Assembly: GCA_017499595.2 (NCBI GenBank)
Contig: CM039007.1
Span: 248,001-312,000, forward strand
Length of the DNA stretch: 64,000 nucleotides
From: Psilocybe cubensis
Taxonomy: Eukaryota
Direction of reading: 5' to 3'
Of the stretch, positions 3 through 46,574 are shown one piece after another; position 1 is the stretch's first letter, and every line of letters starts with the position of its first letter. The notes below the pieces were generated by a model. That model was not told where the DNA came from, searched no databases, and saw only the letters and a program-made list of their open reading frames with translations. Made by a program: the position numbers and the translations under genes.

Positions 3-3000
3 GATACAGGTGCGAGTGCGCGTGCGCGTGCGAGTACGAGCGCGAGTGCGATTGGACTGTCGCCTATGGAGGGCGTAGAGTCGACTGCACCGACGCCGAT
101 GTCGACAGCGACGCCTGCTCTGACTCAGATAGTTCTCAACTCGCCCACTCCTCCGCCAGCGCCAGTCGCAACGACGACACCGACAGTAGCAGCGATAACG
201 ACGACCTCGACCACGACCACGACCACAACAGCAACGACTTCCACGTCGGCTTCGGGCAGTACACCCACGCCTGTGGCCGCGCCCAAGACGCCTTCGTCGA
301 CTGCGTCCACGCCGACCCCGCCTCCGCCACCTATCACCAACGGCACGGCGAAGCCTGCGTCTGGTACAGTGTCCACAACAAAGCCTGCGGTGCCTGCGGG
401 CAAGAGGGCGGCGATCTTTTTGGGAGATAAAGGGTCGGTCAGTTTTGCGGGCACCAGTGCCAGTGGAAGCAGCGGTGCGGGAAGTTCGGACAGCGCGAGC
501 GCGAATGCGAATGCGATGCAACTCGCAACGGCGTCGCCTGGGCCTAGTGCATCGACTCAGCCAGCTACTGAAGGTGCGGCTACGGCTGCTACTGCTACCG
601 CGACCACGCCAACGCCAATACCAATGCAGAAGCATGCTACTCCAGCTCCACCTGGGGTCGCGCCACAGTCTACCAGTTCCTCTTTAGTTACGAGTGCAGC
701 AAAGCCCAAAGCGGGGCCGTCGCCGCCGCCTCCTGCTGGTTCATCGTCCTCGGCGGCGGCTGGGGTAGGAGGACAGGCGACGCTGGCGGCTATCATCAAC
801 GACGCGCTGATGCGCTCTGTACAGGGCCTACAAGCGCAACTGCAACAGGAAGCTGCGTTGGCTTCTACAACTACCCCGACTTCGACTAACGCTGGTGCTG
901 CTGCTGCTGCTACTACCACTGCGTCTTCCGGCGCGACTGCGACTTCATCTGTGTCAGCGGGAGCAGGCGGACAGGCGGGAAAGAGCAAGCTTACGCTGAC
1001 GCAGGAGCAGCTTGCCACGTTGAATATGATGGCGAAGATTATTGGCACGAGCAGGATGGGTCCGCCGACGCCGACGCCGACGTCGACGCCTGCTCTTGTT
1101 TCTACGCCTGCCCCTGCGCCTGTTTCGACGTCTACGTCTACGTCGGGGGCGAGTGCGGGGTCCAGTGTGGGGTCTAGTGTTGCGCCGGTATCTACTGCTG
1201 GTGCTACACCCGTACTGGGCCCGTCAAATGTAAATGCGAACTTTGGTGCAAGTGCGGGTGGGGGTGGGAGCAGTATACGGGCGAGTCCGGCTGCTCCTAC
1301 ACCCACCCCCACGACGGCGACGGCCACGACGACGACGGTGACGACAGCGACTAGTTCTAGCTCTGGCGCAAAGCCAGCTATCACTACCAGCACCGCTGGC
1401 AAAGCTCCTACAATTTCGAATGCGAATGCGAACGCGAACGCGAGTTCAAGCGGGAAGCCTGCCCCAGCTCCTCTCCCGCGCGTCGGCCTGTCGAACGCGG
1501 CACAGGCGCAGACGGTCGTTTCGTCGACTGCGGTGTTGGCGGGTGTCAGTGCGGCTCATCAGCAATCTTCTTCCTCTTCCTCTTCTTTTTCTGCTGCTGC
1601 TGCTGGACGAGGTGGGACGGCCAATATGGGTCAAGCGCAAGCGCAAGTTCAAGGCAAAGGGCAGCAGACGGTGCCTCTGCCTATGTCGAAGTTGGTTAGG
1701 AGTGCTGTGGATAGTGTTGCCGCTGGAAGTGGAAGTGCGATGCAAGTCGACGGTCCTCCTCCTCCTGTGTCTGCGTCTGCCGGAGCGCCAGCGAGACTCC
1801 CGCAGGCGCCGCAGGATGATGCGATGAAGATGGATGTGGACAATGACAATGACACAGATGTGGGAAGGACGCGTGCGTCTCGGGCTTTGACGTCGACAGC
1901 TGCTAGACCAGGGCGTTTAAATCTGCCTCCCATACCGATACCGATACCGACTCCCGCAAACGCTTCAGCTCCTACGCCGCTTCCCGGCACAACGACGATG
2001 ACGTCGCTGTCGAGTTCGTTTGCGGACGACGCGGCCAATTCGGTAGGGTTGTTGATGACGCCGGGGAATAGGACCAAGTCGCTGCATATGCTGATGTTGT
2101 TGAGGGATCTGCTGCACTTTTTGAGGGTGCCGGGGTGGGGTGGAAATTTGAGGGATGTGTTGGTAGAGATGGGGGTGCATTTGGTCGGACCGGAGGAGAG
2201 CGCGGGTGCGGGTGAGGATGTGTCTTCGTCTTCAGCTCAGGCTGCGGGATCTGCGATGACGACGACGGCAGCCACGACGACCACGACGGCGACTACAACC
2301 AGAACATCAGGAGCCACAACACCACCCACCCAACTGCAGCTCAACGCGGCTCTCTCAGCCGTCCTCGACGCGCGGCGCCCACAGCTGGACGAAGACGAGC
2401 CGTTAACGGTCGACCAGCGCCTCGACATGCTCGCACACGCGTCCGTCGCGCTCGCGAAGGTGCTTTTCCCGTTTCGTGGGGACGAGCTCGAGCTGCGGAT
2501 CGCGTCGCTCGATGGGAGGCTGCAGCAGCAATTCGAGTCGTTGTGGAATTCGGAGGAGAGGGGCGAGGTGGAGGTGGCGCGGGCGTTGGGGAATGGGCAT
2601 GTGTTGTTGGGGGCTGCTTCTGCTGCCGCTGCCGCGGCCCTGACGGGTACACCTGAGCCAGGGTTCCGTCCACCTGCCAGTGCGTTTGCGAACGAGGAGG
2701 TGAGGCAAGAGAGGAGTCTGTTCCAGAGGGGAGTGCAAACGGAAGAAGGGGAGGGGGCACAGGGACATGTTGTTGTGGTTGAGAGAGAGTTTGTTGAGCA
2801 GGATGTGCAAGCGTTTATTGAGGAGGTGATCGAACCTGTTCCGGGGGTTGTAGGCCAGGAAGCTGGGGTGCAGACTGACGAGGTGGAAAAGGAGAAAGAG
2901 AAGGAGGTTGTGTATGTCACTTCGGACGCTTCTGCGCCGCGTCCTGTGGTCCCGCAGACGCCAACAGCAAAAGCGATGAAGCTTATCATGCGGAACATTG

Positions 3001-4082
3001 CAGATCTGCTCGAGTCGACGTCGCTTGATGATTCTGCCAAGGTGTCTGGATCCAGTTCGAGTGTGAAGGGGAAGGACAAGGGTAAAGGCAAAGGCAAAGA
3101 ACGTGAGCGGGCGTTGAGTGTTGGAGATGTGGATATGGTGCCTGTTGGTTCTGCGGCACTGCATGGCACGGTGCCAGTGCCGGTGTCGGTGCCGGTGTCG
3201 TCGGCGTCGCCTGTGGTGGATGCGATTGTGAGCGAGATCAAGGCGATCAAAGACGAACTCAGGCAGAGCCAGCAGCAGACGATTGAGCAGCTGGCGGCGG
3301 TGCATCGGGAGGAGCTGGCGGCGCTGAAGGAGGAGATGAAGGGTCGTGAGGAGAGGGTTCGTGATGAGGCAGAGGAAATAAAGAAGAGATATCGCGAGGA
3401 TGCGGAGAGGGGGCGTGAGGAGATAGAAGAGATGAAGAAAAGGCATCGTGAGGAGGTTGAGAGGTTGCTTGAAAGTGTCCGGATTATGGAGAGGGAACGA
3501 GAGAGATTTGGAGGGAAGGGGAAGGGTAAAGACAGAGAGATGAGCAAGATGGAAGATGATGGAGAAGAGGATGAGGAAGATGAGGAAGGTGGACATGGCA
3601 CGATCCCTGCCCTTGAGTTGCGAGAACTCTGTCGAAGAGTATCGTCGCTGGAAGCCCGGACGTCGTCGCAAGATATTATGAGCTCGGCGTCTGTCGCCTC
3701 GCCGTCCGTGAGCCACTTCTCGCTCGACAACAGCATCAGCCAGAACGGACGACAGCGCCAACACCAACACCAACACCAACAATCACTAGGCGGCTCCCAC
3801 CCACTTGCACATTTGATGACACACGATTTCGAAGATACGCCGAGCGTCGCGAGTCCTGCGCCCATGTCGGCGTCTACGTCCGGGCGCCAGTTTTGGAGGG
3901 AGAATTCGACGCCGAATCCTGGGACGCCCATTTCGAGTTCTGGCGCTGCTCCGTTCAGTCATCCGTATCGGTATGATGGGGGCATGGATCTGGACGATAG
4001 TATCCCGCTGCCTGCGAAATCGCAGAGGAAGATGGCGCTGTTGATGTTCCCGCGACCTTCAACGGGATCGTCAACGGGATAG
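3..4082 (+). CDS. Large low-complexity Ala/Thr/Ser/Pro-rich protein with C-terminal coiled coil; probably 5'-partial
   Basis: The 1338-aa ORF frame is open from position 3, so the gene may start before the window. It has long T/S/A/P tracts, KGKGK motifs and an E/K/R-rich heptad region near 3230-3520. No family recognised. Confidence 0.7.
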   Translation, partial: DTGASARARASTSASAIGLSPMEGVESTAPTPMSTATPALTQIVLNSPTPPPAPVATTTPTVAAITTTSTTTTTTTATTSTSASGSTPTPVAAPKTPSSTASTPTPPPPPITNGTAKPASGTVSTTKPAVPAGKRAAIFLGDKGSVSFAGTSASGSSGAGSSDSASANANAMQLATASPGPSASTQPATEGAATAATATATTPTPIPMQKHATPAPPGVAPQSTSSSLVTSAAKPKAGPSPPPPAGSSSSAAAGVGGQATLAAIINDALMRSVQGLQAQLQQEAALASTTTPTSTNAGAAAAATTTASSGATATSSVSAGAGGQAGKSKLTLTQEQLATLNMMAKIIGTSRMGPPTPTPTSTPALVSTPAPAPVSTSTSTSGASAGSSVGSSVAPVSTAGATPVLGPSNVNANFGASAGGGGSSIRASPAAPTPTPTTATATTTTVTTATSSSSGAKPAITTSTAGKAPTISNANANANASSSGKPAPAPLPRVGLSNAAQAQTVVSSTAVLAGVSAAHQQSSSSSSSFSAAAAGRGGTANMGQAQAQVQGKGQQTVPLPMSKLVRSAVDSVAAGSGSAMQVDGPPPPVSASAGAPARLPQAPQDDAMKMDVDNDNDTDVGRTRASRALTSTAARPGRLNLPPIPIPIPTPANASAPTPLPGTTTMTSLSSSFADDAANSVGLLMTPGNRTKSLHMLMLLRDLLHFLRVPGWGGNLRDVLVEMGVHLVGPEESAGAGEDVSSSSAQAAGSAMTTTAATTTTTATTTRTSGATTPPTQLQLNAALSAVLDARRPQLDEDEPLTVDQRLDMLAHASVALAKVLFPFRGDELELRIASLDGRLQQQFESLWNSEERGEVEVARALGNGHVLLGAASAAAAAALTGTPEPGFRPPASAFANEEVRQERSLFQRGVQTEEGEGAQGHVVVVEREFVEQDVQAFIEEVIEPVPGVVGQEAGVQTDEVEKEKEKEVVYVTSDASAPRPVVPQTPTAKAMKLIMRNIADLLESTSLDDSAKVSGSSSSVKGKDKGKGKGKERERALSVGDVDMVPVGSAALHGTVPVPVSVPVSSASPVVDAIVSEIKAIKDELRQSQQQTIEQLAAVHREELAALKEEMKGREERVRDEAEEIKKRYREDAERGREEIEEMKKRHREEVERLLESVRIMERERERFGGKGKGKDREMSKMEDDGEEDEEDEEGGHGTIPALELRELCRRVSSLEARTSSQDIMSSASVASPSVSHFSLDNSISQNGRQRQHQHQHQQSLGGSHPLAHLMTHDFEDTPSVASPAPMSASTSGRQFWRENSTPNPGTPISSSGAAPFSHPYRYDGGMDLDDSIPLPAKSQRKMALLMFPRPSTGSSTG

Positions 4083-7349: not shown

Positions 7350-10300
7350 TCAAAGGCCTAGGTGAATGAAAGGAACAATATACGTCAGAGGGTAATTTCT
7401 CTTTTGCATGTCAATAAGGGCCTCGTGTAGTGCTTCTGCTCCTTCTCTCATGTTTGCATTTTCCATCCCATTCCTAAAGAAGTGCGAATAGACTTTGGTT
7501 GAAGCTGCGGCTGCCGCTCTGTCCATCACGCTCCACATCGTACCAATCACAGATTGAACCCCGGAGAATTGCATCCCAGCAGCAAGGTGAATGCATTCGT
7601 CAGGAACACTCGCATCTCCAGCAGAGGTAAGGCACGCTGACAAGAAGGCAAACTGTACGCGAGAGAGATCCAACTCCATCAGTTTGGATAGTTTTAGTTT
7701 GCCATTGTTGAGAAAGAATGAGCTGTTGAATGGGTATTCTTCGTCTTGATACGCGTGGCATGATAGATGGATGCAGGAATGATCTGGGAGTTTGCTGATG
7801 ACTGGATAAATATCTGCTTCCTCCCCAATTAGAGTTGTCAATTGATCGGGGACGTAATAAAAGTGTTTCTTCAAAGCCTTAATCTCCTTCTCAACAAACT
7901 TGAGTGGTGCGTAACCGGGGGTGTTTGGCAGCCCAACGGCTAGAGCTTTCACGGGGGAAGAAGGTGACTTTGCAGCACGGATTAGCGACTGGATTGATGG
8001 GATATACGAGGAGACTACGAGGTCGAGCAATCCGAGCTGACCTTTCTCACATGGAGAAGCAGCGTGGAGTGGCAAAAACATCGAAGCGCCGGTTGGATAC
8101 CACCACACACGTTTCTGCTCTCCGGTGCGTTTGAGGTAATCCAGAAGTGGAAGTGCCATCCCTGTCCATAATCCTCGTAGAATGGGCTTAAGATATTCGT
8201 TTTCAAAGTCTTCCGACGACAGTTTACCACGTTCGAATTCATGTGTGGCAGATCGTAGCGTCTCTGCCCAGGCCTGGATCTCGTCTCCAGATAATTCAGG
8301 CAATGGTAAGTGATGGAAAACAAGGCCCTCTCCTCTGGAATGAATAACAATCGCGTCGCATCGAAGAGAGTAGGGACTAAGAATGACAATGCACCCGTTC
8401 GCGATAATACGATTTAGATCATCCTCGTACGTCTCAGAAAGGCCGAGTACATGGCTAGTCCCTTGCAGCTCAGAGTGCAGCGTAGACCATCTATTTGCTG
8501 CACTATGAAGCGATGCATCCATAGAAGTGCTCATAAATTCGGAATTAAAGTCTTCTGATATCACAGACCTCCTTCCAGCAAGGAAGGTTTTTCCTAGGTT
8601 CATGAGTCTTTTGGCAATGTCTTGGAAGGATTCCCTGACAGATTCGTCGGGTAGAGAACCGAAAGGATTATCAGGAACATGCTTCATAAAATCATCCAAC
8701 TCCTCCACGGTCTCTGGCATCGTAGACCCATGACGGGTGCGCATCAAATTCTCTGAAAGGAGTTTGAACTCACGTTGTCGTTCGTCGCCGCCCGGTAGCA
8801 TGTGTCCAGCTTTAAGTTGCAGCGTTTGGGTCCACATAATGTTGCGCCCCTGTTCAAGACGGGAAACTGCGCTGACTATATCACTCGAATTCAACGCGTA
8901 TATGGCCGCTCTGTTTGGGATGGAGGCCTTCTGAGACGACAATACCCGATAATGAGCTGGAATACGGTTGGTGAGAGGGGCTAGCGTTGGCAATATTTCA
9001 AGAGCGAGAACCAGTGCATCCTCAGCGCCCTCTGAGGCTTCAGACAGTTCCACAGCGTTGGCCCATTCAATCGCTGCGTTTAATCGCAAAGAGGGCCATG
9101 TCGAGGATAAAGCTACGGACACAAAATGCGCAATGGCGTCGTCGCATGTTTCGGACCGTCCGGACAGATAGTGCTGAATCAATAACTGGCCTAGTTCCAG
9201 CCCACACTGGTGACGATATGGAGAGTCCTCTGGCGCCTTGTCAAATGCCAGCTGTGCATGATGGAGCGCAGTTTCAAAATCTTCGACGTTTTTACCAAGA
9301 CGGAAACGGCATAACAGTGCTTTGGAAAGCTAGTTCTCGACTCGAGATTCTAAATGCAGAGGACCGGAAAAGTTCTTCCTGGACTTTTGTATAATGGAAA
9401 TCCCTGCATCGACTCCAGACAAATCCCTGTTCACTTCCGAGGAGACAGCAGTGAGAAATCCGATAGTCGATTCAGCGGGAATGCGAGAGTGTCGTCCAAT
9501 ATCGTTATCTGCGGCCGTAATGGCAGTCTGTACACTTTCTAATGCCGTACGCAGATCCACAGTACCGTTTTCAACTGCCAGATGACGAGAATAAAGGATT
9601 GTGGCGAGGTCGACTGTATACGGAACGCGAAGCGGATGAGAAGGGTGAAGAAGCCCTAGTGCCTTAATTCCATGTTTAACAGCCTTGTTCAAGTCATCGA
9701 TGTCCATTGTCATTTTGAAGCGTTCGGATAGCGCCAGAGCATAAAGTCGATGGCCTGCTGCTTTATCGGCAGCGTAATCTTGATGTTCGGTGGCTGGGGG
9801 CACCACAATTTGGCTGCACATTATGCCACGGGCCAAAGCGCGATCTAAATCATCCAGTGCTCCACTGTGCATGAAACGGTCATAGTAGGCTAAACCAAGG
9901 ACGACGGTTGCCGCAGTAGGGGTTGGTTTGTCTTCTGTCAGCGCAAGTAAATGAACAATGCATTCATTTAAGCTATCCAGATTCCCCGTGCAGCGATAAT
10001 GATCTGCGAGACAGAAACCCAGCTCGGTGCGGAGAAATTCCATGACTCGAGATGGAATTTCGGGAAAGTCGTTACAGATGCCCCAGGAATTCTTCAAGAG
10101 AGCCAGAGAAGCTTCCAACCTTTCGATGTTTCCGAGTGTTTGGACGAGTAATCTTTGTCCGTATGCCCAGCATCGTACGAGTATCGGAGCTAATCGCACT
10201 TGTCGAACCTCTGGGAGTTGGGACAACTTCTGCAGTGCCCGAGCTGTCCATTCGCAGCCAAATTCAAGGACATCGTTCTCCCAGTTCACTTCGTACAAGT

Positions 10301-11218
10301 GGAGAAGGGTAATGCCAATTGATGATTCAATCATAGGATAGTTATCGTCATCCTCGGGGACCGTGATGAAGAAGTCAACCAGTTCTTTGAGGTTGGCGTA
10401 GATCATACGCTCGTTTGTCTGATACAGACGAGTAACTGCGTTGAGCTCCACAGCAGCGAGGTCCCTGTGAAGGGGTGGTTGCTCAGACTGAGTGCCTCCG
10501 TTCTCCGTATCCGATAATATAAATGATTTCGCCAATCTCCCTGCAGACGATGTCTCCGGAGAAGAGGTAGATGAAGTAGAATCATGGCCGGCCATTTTGT
10601 CCATCATCAAAAAGGCATCTTTAACCATGCCAAGAAGATCCCCTACGCCCTCTTTTGTGTATTCTAAAGAGTTGTAAAGTGGGCCCTCCGCCGTTGGACG
10701 TTCCACCTTCCGGAAATCGCTTGGAATGGTAGCTGTGGGGATCTCCCGATTGGCGAGTTGAGGTATTTTACTTTGAACGTGCTGCCATTGTCACCGCAAT
10801 AAACAAATGATTAGAATAACAACAAACTGTTGTAAATTTAAAACCACAAATTTACCATCAAGTCGTCGAAGATTTTCAGAAGTTCAGACAGTGCAGTCTC
10901 CGGGGTAGTTTCTGGTGGTTGAGAGCCAGCATTTTCTGCAGCGGTATCACTGGACGCTGTACTGGTGGTATTGAGAGTATTAGAATGGGACATCATCTGC
11001 ATCAGTCTGCCGAGCATCACGAGCTCAGGTGCTTGTGTTGTGGCAGGATCCACGTCACCCGGAGTCGAAACGCTCGTGTCATTTTCGGATCTATGAGAAC
11101 ACGTTCAATGTCGCTAACAAACCGTATGGATGCAAATTCAAACTTACTTCTCGGTCTGGGGCCCGTTGTTGTTGTGCTTCGCGTTGGATTCAGCGTGGTA
11201 GTCGTTGGTGTTGGACAT
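7350..11218 (-). pseudogene. TPR-repeat plus CHAT (caspase-like) protease gene with one in-frame premature TAG at 9330-9332
   Basis: The C-terminal CHAT domain carries VWWYPTG..MFLPLHAA, IHLSCHA, FAFLSAC, HLAAGMQFSG..SVIGTMW and PFIHLG. Upstream are TPR-like repeats (DDLDRAL, DDLNKAV). ATG 11218 (MSNTNDYH) joins through two GT-AG introns (about 11091-11147 and 10782-10855). ORFs 9330..10706 and 7350..9182 are in the same frame, separated only by the TAG. Confidence 0.8.
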
Positions 11219-24146: not shown

Positions 24147-24633
24147 ATGCAACTGTTTGCCAACGTTCTTGCCATGATTTTTCTTGCAACCTACGCAATC
24201 CACACTGTGTCAGCCGCTCCCAATGGGCTATCACCGGGAGGTATTCAGTACTTCTCCAAGAGGCACGCTTTGTCCGCCTCAACCTGGAGGTCTGAAGAGG
24301 ACCCACACGCGTTTATGAACGCGAAAAATCTGGTCAAGAACATGCGAAGACAAATTCTCAACGATGCTGAGTCAACGCTGTCCACGGCGGAAGGTCCCTC
24401 TGTAGCCGCCGATGCTGCACAGACAGTAGAGAACAACACTGGTACTGATAGGTAAGTAAAACTTGCGTATTTCCTCCAATTCCTTCACATATTAATCGCT
24501 CTTCTGATTCCGCAGAAGTCAAGCCTCTGTAGGCCCTGTCGGTGCTAACACATCTTCTGTTCCCACCACAATTGGAGAGGCTGCCAATATTGCCCAAGGC
24601 GCAGCGTCATCCCCCCCTACTACCTCTACGTAG
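24147..24633 (+). CDS. Small secreted protein with dibasic sites and an Ala/Ser/Thr-rich tail, 2 exons
   Basis: Signal peptide MQLFANVLAMIFLATYAIHTVSA, then FSKR and MRR. Intron 24452-24515 (GTAAGT...CGCAG). Ends PPTTST*. Confidence 0.65.
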
Positions 24634-27659: not shown

Positions 27660-27666
27660 TATAAAT
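27660..27666 (+). promoter_or_regulatory. TATA box of His-rich precursor gene 1
   Basis: TATAAAT 80 nt upstream of ATG 27740. Confidence 0.55.
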
Positions 27667-27739: not shown

Positions 27740-28627
27740 ATGAAGGCCGTATTCTTTGCATTGGTGGTGGCATTCTTTGCCTCTGAGGCGCTGGCTATTC
27801 CTGTGCAACAGGGAGATACTAACAAGTACGCTTTGCAAGGCCATGGAACTACTTGATGTGCATTAACCAATTCTTCCAGTGCTGTAGGGTTACTCTACTC
27901 GCGTACCGACCCCCCAAAACGACAAGCAGCTGGAACCACCACGACCACGACATCGACTTCCACTACGAACACTGGGGAAGCCAATGACGATTCATTTGCG
28001 CTGGCTGCGCGAAAGGAAAAAACGCCCACCTATGGATATCCGCACAAACACAAGAAGCATCGCCATCATCACAAATACCACTACTCGCGAGCTGTTGAAA
28101 TAATCCCTGATAACGATGTTGTATCCGTTCCCCGGCCCATTGTCCAACCTTCCACCGAAAGCAACGAAGCCGATACAACTACAAGGTACGTCAAAACTAT
28201 CAAGCATTGAACTTATGTCTCTGATGCCTCTCGCTGCAGCGGGGTAACGAACAATGACACTGACAACAATGTCGACCAAGGCGACGAAAACGACATTGAA
28301 AACGAAGATAACAATGTGGGCGACGAGGGGTATGAGAATGATTATGATGACGATGACGACGACGACGACGATGAATATGATGCTTATTATTACGAGGAAG
28401 ACGACTACCACGGCGCTAACGGTAGCCCTATGGGCGGTGATGGCTTTGATGAAGGAACATTGGCTGAACGTGAAGAAGCAACAGTGACTTACGGGCACCC
28501 CCACAAGAAACATCATTGGTGGCACAAGCATCATCGTTACCACTACCGAAGTGACGAGCAGAGCGACGAAGCGCAGGAAAATGAGCACTACAGACGTCCG
28601 CACCGTAAGTATAACAAGAAGCATTGA
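27740..28627 (+). CDS. Secreted precursor with His/Lys/Tyr-rich cores and acidic spacers (KEP-like), 3 exons, 259 aa
   Basis: Signal MKAVFFALVVAFFASEALA. Introns 27826-27879 and 28186-28239 give one open frame. Cores are LAAR-KEKTPTYGYPHKHKKHRHHHKYHYSR, LAER-EEATVTYGHPHKKHHWWHKHHRYHYR and HYRRPHRKYNKKH*. Confidence 0.8.
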
Positions 28628-29124
28628 ATCGCTCAATGTAAACATCTCCCAAATTTTGAAATTTATGTCACGAATAGCTACGTTTGTATATTCAGAATGG
28701 TTCCTCTCTATTAAATGGAAAAATGCGAAAAAAATCATAGAGCATCGTTGTGATAAATAGAATACGATGGGACGTACCCATGTTCAATGTCAAAATTTGA
28801 GCCGAAATTGTATCTAAACTTTTCGAGGTGAACCTTCATCTACCGCGACTGCCAGACGCTCTCTCCCGTCGGTTATGAAAGGTAATTGTTCTTTTAAGTT
28901 GGCAACTCAGACTGAAGTAATCTCATAAGTCGATTTAACTAGTGCAAAGGCAGAAAGGGAGGTTATCATTTAAAATAATCAGTGAAGAACGGAAGTATGA
29001 CAGGGCAGCGCAACGTCGTTTATTCAAAAACAATATTACAAAGTCAATCTCTGGCCAGAAACATGACAGCAATTACGTCCTAGTCATAGTTTTGGATACC
29101 CTAGTGACAATAATAATCCAGACT

Positions 29125-30781
29125 TTACAGGCATTGGCTGTAGAACGGGTTACTGCTTTGGCAAGTGGATCCAGGAGCGCAAACAGTTGGTCCGGACCAC
29201 CCAATTCCACCACTGATATCATTGTAATAAGTTGGGATTCAAATTCAGAATGAGAACATATACGAGACATACCATTGGCCGTATTTAGTCTGGGTAGGTC
29301 CGGGAGCAGTCGAGGTGGTAGTGGTAGTTCCTCCGCCAATGGTCGTACCGGAAGATCCCCCAGTATAGGTGGTTCCAATATCTCCGATCTTAATGTTGGA
29401 GTATGTGACTGAAGCATTTGGACTGTTGGCTTCGACGTCTTTGGGGTCACCAGAGGTAGTGGGACATGATCCGCGCTGCGCTCCAGGGCTGGTAGAGTCG
29501 ACGGGGTAAGTTGAATCGAGCCAGAGCATATTGGCGTGGTGATCGTCCCAGATACTCAAAGCGAGAACCATTCCATTCCTGAGGCCTGCTTCCATGCCGG
29601 CCATTCCTCCCTTGGCCTTGAAGCTGTCGGTATCGCCAAAAGCAACCTTCTGGTCAGTGCAAAATTGCTCGGTGATCGAGTCGTAGCCAGAAACTCCGGC
29701 GATGGTACTCTTGGAATTCTGGATGACTTTACCGTCTTGGACATAAATTCTGCGGATCTCTTTGAGTGATCCAGACGAAGTGCCATCGCTGGTGATGAAT
29801 TGAGTAACGACGGTAAACTTCTTCTTGGTGTCAACGGTGAGTCCAGGACCGTAGAACGTTCTGTCTCCCTGGCGGTAAGAGTTGAAGTCACAACCATCAG
29901 GGTCACAGATACCGCCATAACGATCCGTGGGAGTGTTGCACTCCGTGCCGGAGCAGCGGTAGGGGCCGGTCTTGGTGCAAGGATGAGGGGTGTAGGCGGC
30001 GGAGATAGAGTTAGCCTCCCAAATATCCATTTCGTTGCAGCATGTGCCGTATTTACCGTTGCCGGCGTTGGCGTCGCTGTCTGAAGGGGTCCAACCCTCA
30101 GCATTGGCCTGTAAAAATATAATATGAGACCATATCATTTGTGACAACAAAATAATGGGTGCATACCTCTCCTGAGATCCATTTAATGTCCTTAGGGCAT
30201 TGGGAATCGCAGTAACCCGTTCCATACTTTGCACCAGCTTTGTTGGTTGGGTGCTTAGATAAACCTCCATCGGCGTCCATCTCGGAGAAGTAAAGCGCGC
30301 CATTGAGACCACAGGGAAGGTTGGAGACATCAACGTCGAACGTAAACTCCTGATTAAGAACCTTGAAAAGCTCGTACTTGGAATCGCTGTTCATGAGATA
30401 GACACGAGATCCAATATTCTTTCCATTGGCGTTAGTGGTGACGAATTTTAGGGTAAGAGCGTTTCCGGAGACGGTGATACCGTACGTTTCAGAGTAGTCG
30501 GCACCGTCTATGGCGCAGTTGGCCGCACAACTCTTGTTGTCGGGACAGATGGTGGTGTTCCAAGTGTTACCGGTGTAGCAGTTAGTGTAGCCGTCCTTGT
30601 TATGCGTCCATCGCCAGTTGGAATCCAAAACAACCTGACCAGATGAAACAGTAGTGCATCCCGACCTGGTGCAACGTTGAAAGGGAAGCGCTGGATGATT
30701 TTCAGCCTGGTACGTGCCGACGAGTTGACCCAAGGCAACAGAACCAAAAGTAAGAGCGAGAAGAGCAGTTTTTGGGAACAT
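29125..30781 (-). CDS. cbh1: GH7 cellobiohydrolase I with linker and C-terminal CBM1
   Basis: Signal peptide, [28 protein letters not shown], catalytic [16 protein letters not shown], a T/G linker and CBM1 [35 protein letters not shown]. Two introns. Confidence 0.97.
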
Positions 30782-46085: not shown

Positions 46086-46574
46086 ATGAAGAATATCTTC
46101 AGTATCTTCGCTGTTGCTTGCGCCCTTCTCTTCACTGGAGTCGGAGCCGTTCCGATTTCCTCTGACGAAGTTGAGGCACGCGAAACCGACTACTACCGCC
46201 ACCACTATAGGCACCGCTACCACCACTGGTACCCTCGTGAGGACGAAATTAACAACGAAGTCGCTGCGACTGAGAACAAAGAGGAAGGCGACCTCTTCCC
46301 ATTTGGCTTTGGATACCACCACAGATACGGTTATTACCCCCGCGACACTGACGTTGAATCGAGCGCCGATGAAGATGCTGAAGCTGCCAGCTCCAAGCTC
46401 TGGCCCTTCGGCGGCTACGGGTACGGCCCATTCCGTCACCGTATTTTCCACCGCCCCGGATTCTTCTATCGTCGCGAAGATGAGGACACCGACGACGCTG
46501 GCGCTGTACCATACCATCATCGTTATCGCTACCGTCACCGTCGCCCTTACTACCACCACCACAGGATATACTAA
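46086..46574 (+). CDS. Secreted multi-core His/Tyr/Arg-rich peptide precursor (KEP-like), intronless, 162 aa
   Basis: Signal MKNIFSIFAVACALLFTGVGA, propeptide ending EAR, then four cationic/aromatic cores separated by acidic spacers. Units end in YPR, YPR, YRR and the C-terminus. Confidence 0.88.
   Translation: MKNIFSIFAVACALLFTGVGAVPISSDEVEARETDYYRHHYRHRYHHWYPREDEINNEVAATENKEEGDLFPFGFGYHHRYGYYPRDTDVESSADEDAEAASSKLWPFGGYGYGPFRHRIFHRPGFFYRREDEDTDDAGAVPYHHRYRYRHRRPYYHHHRIY

Follow-up and report, generated by a model that had tools for sequence, protein, structure and literature searches.

The closest described systems are the KEPs (KEX2-processed repeat proteins) of agaric mushrooms; statements on published systems refer throughout to the parts of the cited papers covered here. 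In Coprinopsis cinerea, the precursors 434504, 446025, 545670, 481379, and 503649 combine an acidic spacer with an LxAR motif and a cationic core, and in KDQ28763.1 from Pleurotus ostreatus the repeats follow LVAR or LAAR plus Lys (PMC9769878, Tables S1 and S2). The same work (Vogt et al., 2022) notes repeats parted by a single Arg and reports that the products of three C. cinerea KEPs expressed in Pichia were cut after single Arg residues. None of the synthetic C. cinerea KEP peptides tested there acted against bacteria, and the knockout of six kep genes, 434504 among them, gave no phenotype (PMC9769878). The motif of Kex2 in its extended form is LxxR, in which P1 is Arg, P4 is aliphatic, and P2 is tolerant, with Glu among the residues accepted there (Outram et al., PMC8528282). 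KEP pipelines accept only precursors with at least three repeats that are flanked by dibasic sites (Le Marquer et al., 2019, PMC6339444; Umemura, 2020, PMC7329392). In the latter survey, 2560 of 7878 KEPs are stand-alone, di-His motifs occur in some KEP types, and the tables give accessions only, with 19 KEPs from Psilocybe cyanescens (PMC7329392). A His-rich peptide of a different kind is histatin-5 of human saliva, which consists of 24 residues with seven His and two Tyr, is disordered, and binds Zn and Cu (PMC6872563).

The precursor described here is encoded by Psilocybe cubensis in a 64,000-nucleotide stretch of DNA, the window (C10:248,001–312,000; genome of 46.6 Mb on 21 contigs), and its gene starts at C10:275,740. 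Like the Agaricomycete KEPs described by Vogt et al., it has a signal peptide, acidic spacers leading to LxxR, repeated basic cores, and single-Arg sites, and it lacks a folded domain. Compared with them, it exhibits only two homologous cores, which lie ~135 residues apart and lack a closing KR or RR. Its cores are His/Tyr-rich and hydrophilic, whereas theirs are amphipathic or Gly/Arg-rich. Four His-core motifs gave no match in the parts of the Vogt supplement searched, compared with 10 matches for a control motif (PMC9769878). The layout is already known from Coprinopsis and Pleurotus KEPs, and the His-rich core is not among the covered parts of those tables. With KEPs in the sense of Le Marquer and Umemura, the protein shares a secreted precursor with internal repeats. 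However, its similar repeats number two instead of at least three and are bounded by single Arg instead of KR, RR, KK (or RK); hence, the published pipelines would miss it. A motif search of the Le Marquer supplement is void, as three control motifs gave no match there either (PMC6339444).

Gene structure, transcription, and strain differences

The sequence-only reading had proposed that removal of two canonical introns yields a protein of 259 residues. This gene model was confirmed. Joining the three exons (Table 1) gives 780 nt, coding for 259 residues plus stop, and a single 529-nt contig of run X1 jumps exactly both introns, whereas both introns are retained in the DNA-like runs X2 and X4. 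Because both introns carry in-frame stops, the gene appears only as fragments in the list of ORFs; retention ends translation at codon 39 (intron 1) or codon 139 (intron 2). Short GT–AG introns are found in the genome.

Table 1. Features of the precursor gene and of a neighboring precursor (positions within the window)
Feature	Position	Strand	Basis or remark
TATA-like box (candidate)	27660..27665	+	pattern match, 80 nt upstream of ATG
Exon 1: signal peptide (residues 1–19, 27740–27796) and start of pro-region	27740..27825	+	splicing, X1 contig, hydropathy
Intron 1, 54 nt, GT..AG, in-frame TGA	27826..27879	+	absent from X1 contig, present in X2/X4
Exon 2: pro-region, Thr-rich spacer 1, LAAR, core 1, start of spacer 2	27880..28185	+	
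LYSR	27893..27904	+	pro-region, exon 2
PPKR	27911..27922	+	pro-region, exon 2
LAAR, residues 70–73, before core 1	28001..28012	+	predicted kexin cut
Core 1, residues 74–99	28013..28090	+	
Acidic spacer 2, spans intron 2	28091..28459	+	109 aa, net −36 including the LAER end
Intron 2, 54 nt, GT..AG, in-frame TGA	28186..28239	+	absent from X1 contig
Exon 3: acidic spacer 2 with Asp run, LAER, core 2, spacer 3, basic tail, stop	28240..28627	+	
LAER, residues 205–208, before core 2	28460..28471	+	predicted kexin cut
Core 2, residues 209–234	28472..28549	+	
Acidic spacer 3, short	28550..28585	+	12 aa, net −6
Basic C-terminal tail, 13 aa, residues 247–259	28586..28624	+	no cut motif ahead
Intronless 162-aa secreted His/Tyr/Arg precursor, alike in design	46086..46574	+	18 kb from the gene; homology not detectable

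Intron skipping was seen in one of the two runs guessed to be RNA (X1 and X5) and in neither of the two DNA-like runs. No run is on record as RNA; X1 is taken as such because it skips three GT–AG introns, one of them in the neighboring GH7 gene, and leaves the flanks uncovered. Its cover at the locus is confined to 27742–28652 and includes 27742–27825 of exon 1. In X5, the gene is uncovered and the GH7 neighbor covered, where contigs prove presence, not absence. The gene is real and, with X1 counted as RNA by guess, expressed; it is single-copy in its own genome.

A 248-aa antisense ORF (27992–28738), which is missing from the protein collection, was regarded as a shadow ORF opposite the coding sequence. 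The neighboring GH7 cellobiohydrolase gene (29045–30781, minus strand) converges on the 3′ end of the gene, and its intron 29213–29272 is skipped in both RNA-guess runs.

The gene is under purifying selection. Exon 2 of the X1 allele exhibits 10 differences in a complete list, 8 of them silent, whereas 66 to 75% would be expected to change an amino acid (P 0.0004–0.004, depending on transition weighting). For exons 2 and 3 together, a residue is changed by 6 of the 16 differences listed, a count that leaves out 28326–28408 (P 0.0005–0.015). All three differences in core 1 are silent. Core 2 contains one silent and one Val/Ala difference, both within its first six residues, and the His-rich parts of the cores show no strain change among the differences listed. 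Spacer 2 carries substitutions and a 6-nt (two-codon) in-frame insertion. Residue-changing differences are not significantly rarer in the cores (1 of 5) than in the spacers (5 of 11; Fisher P 0.59).

These data bear on whether the gene is a young, functionless orphan transcript, its pattern having arisen from simple repeats. Such an orphan would fit the lack of a homologue in the collections searched and the detection in just one of two RNA-guess runs. It is nevertheless very improbable, since two clean, stop-containing introns are spliced, a signal peptide is present, and the reading frame is intact in all alleles compared, with an insertion that is in-frame only; the excess of silent changes already largely refutes it.

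Architecture of the precursor and its predicted cut sites

Residues 1 to 19 form the sole hydrophobic stretch of the protein (11-residue Kyte–Doolittle value of 3.0, compared with at most 0.71 downstream). By this hydropathy heuristic, used instead of SignalP, the precursor has a secretion signal without a membrane segment, as expected for the secreted product originally proposed. The 259-residue product is free of cysteine. The pro-region closes with PPKR, followed by Gln, and leads into spacer 1, which closes with LAAR. Core 1 consists of 26 residues with 7 His, 4 Tyr, 6 Lys, and 2 Arg (net +7, pI 10.2, 3379.75 Da), and core 2 contains 8 His, 3 Tyr, and 2 Trp (net +3, pI 9.7, 3456.68 Da). 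Spacer 2, which closes with LAER, lies between them, and the chain ends with spacer 3 and a tail of net +6 with 3 His. Cores and tail (65 residues) hold 18 of the 19 His. The description of the spacers as very acidic applies to spacers 2 and 3, whereas spacer 1 is Thr-rich with a net charge of −2.

The duplicated cores lie where the sequence-only reading had placed them, directly after LAAR and LAER. Their alignment score of 90 was matched by none of 5000 whole-core shuffles and by 5, 3, and 0 of 5000 shuffles of blocks of 6, 8, and 10 residues. Since shuffles seldom reach this score, the likeness of the cores exceeds their shared composition. Including the cut sites, they are 48% identical over 45 residues, with TYGxPHK kept in both copies, as are LA and R ahead of the core. 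A third, terminal core had also been claimed; the tail is indeed present, but it is only compositionally alike and has no cut motif ahead. Own-genome searches with the cores return the two cores only, the tail not being among them. Within the first ten core residues (28013–28042 and 28472–28501), every second position is kept (Glu, Thr, Thr, Gly, Pro) in a dipeptide-like manner, and three stepwise dipeptide removals would give core 2 an x-x-His start.

The mature chain contains four Leu and twelve Arg. Its three LxxR motifs are located in the pro-region, immediately ahead of core 1, and immediately ahead of core 2. Three of the four Leu sit in LxxR, and three LxxR were reached in 78 of 200,000 shuffles. 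Hence, each core is directly preceded, after an acidic or disordered spacer, by an Arg site with an aliphatic P4 residue. The genome itself contains three kexin P-domain matches, and kexin cutting at the LxxR sites is likely, as judged from the motifs. Dibasic sites are arranged differently. The only KR occupies residues 42 and 43, and neither KR nor RR stands at the core ends. Both cores have KK in their interior, core 1 alone has an RK at its start, and the residue after RR is Pro. A literal KR/KK/RR digest splits both cores and thereby destroys the repeats. Of the monobasic or dibasic release first suggested, the LxxR enrichment thus points to monobasic cutting before the cores, whereas KK inside the cores and RR–Pro argue against the dibasic variant.

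The Arg closing each core is conserved in position; its P4 residue is His or Tyr, and its P2 residue is Ser or Tyr. Since Leu is missing at P4 and a basic residue at P2, free 26-mers are less certain than originally implied, and release at the C-terminal ends of the cores would be an unsupported assumption. Cuts at LxxR and KR alone would give the fragments 74–208 (net −29, 8 His) and 209–259 (net +3, 11 His).

Signaling peptides like alpha-pheromone, which Ste13 trims and a receptor perceives, would be routed in the same KEP-like way, and TYGxPHK in both cores loosely recalls the Pleosporales pheromone motif PYGXPXG (PMC6339444). However, counting dipeptides from each LxxR, the first three close with Glu, Thr, and Thr, so that no in-register X-Ala or X-Pro for Ste13 directly follows either site. 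The cores are also long, of low complexity, and 48% identical as opposed to the near-identical repeats of pheromones, and a signaling role is quite unlikely.

Charge segregation along the chain is strong (approximate kappa 0.39, or 0.51 counting His). The mature chain has a net charge of −27 with neutral His and −8 with all His protonated; hence, at acidic pH, the charges of spacers and cores roughly cancel. Neither core is amphipathic (helical moment 0.05 and 0.23, GRAVY −2.7 and −2.2), and this low hydrophobic moment makes membrane lysis or pore formation unlikely. In a single-sequence structure model, which is weak evidence as it lacks an alignment, exon 3 is without secondary structure (pTM 0.13). 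In addition, the chain contains a Thr run and two N-glycosylation sequons.

A chain of this kind might, uncut or partly cut, act as a polyampholyte of the extracellular matrix or cell surface that condenses on His protonation or metal binding, possibly with oxidative Tyr/His cross-links, and serves as a coat or an adhesive for hyphae, primordia, or spores. Among the rivals to the reading as a defence-peptide precursor, this is the main one, a real though clearly lesser possibility. It is favored by the segregated charges and their near balance at low pH, by the missing C-terminal cut motifs of the cores, and by the Thr run and the sequons. The Thr-rich part matches a Pfam glue family at 20.6 bits, below the cut-off of 31 and likely owing to composition. 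Elsewhere in the genome (C3:2,652,505), a motif that we take to be fasciclin-like precedes a block rich in His and Lys and then an acidic end, a similar charge pattern, presumably in a surface protein. On the other hand, the rare Leu residues stand almost only at P4 of the Arg before the cores, which argues for designed cuts; the spacers tolerate substitutions and an insertion; and only two core copies are present, whereas structural repeat proteins typically have more than two. A matrix role would be compatible with cutting. The repellents derived from Rep1 of Ustilago maydis, likewise a Kex2-cut basidiomycete repeat precursor, are surface-active peptides that form a coat on the hyphal surface (PMC8528282); they are amphipathic and water-repelling, whereas the cores here are strongly hydrophilic.

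Compared with histatin-5, the cores are similar in length, in having at least seven His, an excess of Lys/Arg, Tyr, and His–His pairs, and in disorder, a composition analogy only. Core 1 has a histatin-like make-up, with 7 His, 4 Tyr, and 8 Lys/Arg in 26 residues; Pfam and PDB gave no match that would indicate histatin homology. Unlike histatin-5, the cores contain neither an HExxH zinc motif nor an N-terminal ATCUN (Cu/Ni) site, and they stem from a multicore precursor with acidic spacers. With 7 or 8 His each, spaced as HH, HxH, and HxxxH, metal chelation by the cores, as already suggested by the sequence-only reading, is plausible.

The same clusters could also serve the metal handling of the fungus itself, with secreted His-rich fragments scavenging Zn or Cu or binding an excess outside the cell, and the acidic spacers could bind Ca. 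Yet chelation needs no Lys/Arg or aromatic residues, the gene appears lineage-restricted, and no metal transporter was found among the 34 window ORFs compared with Pfam (exon fragments, and hence incomplete). Such a use is unlikely.

Signal peptide and Tyr-containing cores are shared with the dikaritin precursors of ustiloxin and phomopsin; the cores here are, however, long and not near-identical. A dikaritin RiPP was rejected, as no DUF3328/UstYa gene lies within ~15 genes and the nearest is ~377 kb off at C10:653,527, compared with a mean distance of 3.09 genes in the survey (PMC7329392). At least 21 DUF3328/UstYa matches occur genome-wide. Near-identical UstYa/DUF3328 trios are located at C10:653,527–655,886 and 1,133,491–1,135,850, ~480 kb apart, which suggests a segmental duplication. 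A Tyr–His cross-link made by a P450 was dropped by reasoning, the precursor being luminal; the pieces at 39–41 kb of the window that we take to be P450-like are exon fragments without a Pfam match.

Relatives and neighboring genes

Searches for relatives returned mostly blanks, which are weak for short, low-complexity, and fast-changing cores. None of 250 longer proteins considered for exon 3 was homologous, and among proteins of 178 to 2000 residues no candidate shared three words with the core-1 region. A two-core profile compared with 1,835,955,588 representatives gave one match and did not recover the protein itself; this match (P0002, E 1e-4) was judged to be due to chance, being an unrelated Ser-rich repeat protein. 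In metagenome contigs, none of 593 pattern matches was confirmed and none of five exact motif matches lay in a similar frame. The core profile had no PDB match at E 1, exon 3 had no Pfam family at E 0.1, Rfam gave no match, and Atlas showed no usable feature match for exon 3 or for the neighboring precursor at 46086–46574. Two other genes of the window do occur in the protein collection. Since the protein itself was not found there, public gene sets probably lack this gene, which is the simplest reading. As far as searched, the gene appears lineage-restricted.

The genome DNA searched was that of P. cubensis itself, in which protein searches for paralogues found the internal repeat only. With a His-run pattern, CAC repeats drowned any signal (395 matches, compared with 329 for the control), and narrower patterns matched about as often as their controls. 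Of 67 pattern loci translated, 38 with an open frame of at least 55 residues were read and 29 were dropped as short, where short exons may hide; none of the 38 showed the spacer–LxxR–core layout. The pattern HH[RK]Y[HRG]Y has four matches in the two precursor genes and 18 genome-wide, compared with 15 for the control, an enrichment that is circular as the pattern was drawn from the same two genes. The literature searched, which misses most subscription papers, held no His-rich mushroom precursor, and its mushroom-defence part held nothing relevant on zinc, histidine, or sequestration.

The neighboring precursor consists of four His/Tyr/Arg(/Gly/Phe) blocks, three of which close with YPR, YPR, and YRR before acidic spacers. 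It is predicted to be disordered and forms a singleton cluster in the collection, where the only one of 31 candidate relatives to hold was the precursor itself. A composition scan of 264 kb (the window plus 100 kb per side) gave six matches, four of them in the two precursor genes and two without signal or spacer context. Homology of the two precursors is not detectable beyond block composition: their alignment score of 65 was reached by 14 of 1000 whole shuffles, and by 461, 322, and 358 of 1000 block shuffles.

Further genes of the window include a small secreted protein (24147–24455, plus strand) with KR after a short pro-region, an apparent 3′-end intron, and no Pfam match; a CHAT-domain (caspase-like) gene with a long front resembling helical repeats (7350–10628, minus strand); and a 1338-aa intron-free low-complexity ORF (66–4082, plus strand) that is rich in Ala, Thr, Ser, and Pro and has a charged, coiled-coil-like end. 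The exact sequence of the latter was not in the protein collection. P. cubensis grows on dung. On the same contig, at C10:1,673,894–1,677,237, a PF05971 methyltransferase gene and a PF12588 (PSDC) decarboxylase gene lie 2 kb apart, presumably in the PsiM/PsiD arrangement of psilocybin clusters; further PF12588 copies are found on C1 and C9.

Proposed processing, use, and meaning

Beyond splicing and selection, we infer the following course. The precursor would be secreted as a disordered chain, from which the signal peptide is removed first. In the Golgi, kexin would then cut after KR (residue 43) and after the LxxR before each core, giving the two fragments 74–208 and 209–259. Further trimming at the core-ending Arg, by kexin or another protease, would probably release 26-residue His/Tyr/Lys peptides. 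Herein, the acidic spacers may shield the cationic cores within the secretory path. Outside the cell, the cores would bind Zn or Cu via their His clusters, and in addition anionic surfaces. Their most likely use would be a non-lytic, histatin-like defence against microbial competitors, by metal-dependent toxicity or metal withholding.

The reading as a kexin-cut precursor of histatin-like, metal-binding defence peptides is held at a probability of roughly 0.45, somewhat short of an even chance. Given that cutting takes place, a defence role is somewhat favored. Several points weigh against the reading as a whole, among them KK inside both cores, the lack of HExxH and ATCUN, and the insignificant contrast between cores and spacers. 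After cuts at LxxR and KR alone, core 1 would stay joined to a tail that leaves the fragment strongly acidic. The KEP peptides without antibacterial activity and the knockouts without phenotype of Vogt et al. likewise speak against it. In addition, the collections searched gave no homologue that would show conservation across species. The wider idea of linear, cysteine-free mushroom metallopeptides of the histatin kind, which would stem from precursors cut at LxxR and equipped with charge-cancelling spacers, in a fungal convergence on the salivary histatins of mammals and here with two unrelated-looking neighbor genes, is doubtful.

Most fungal KEP-derived peptides are without known function. 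The gene described here encodes a real, apparently unannotated KEP-like precursor, with a histatin-like core that is undescribed in the literature searched. It is a precursor under selection that lies outside the three-repeat and dibasic-site rules of the KEP surveys (PMC6339444, PMC7329392) and apparently outside public proteomes; the number of low-copy precursors with single-Arg sites has therefore probably been underestimated. Being short and free of cysteine, the cores can be synthesized at low cost. A positive result for metal binding or antimicrobial activity would place a histatin-like class in mushroom defence, whereas a negative one would favor a matrix protein that is switched by pH or metal. 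If the histatin-like reading is true, a class of defence peptides has been missed by KEP surveys and gene annotation alike.
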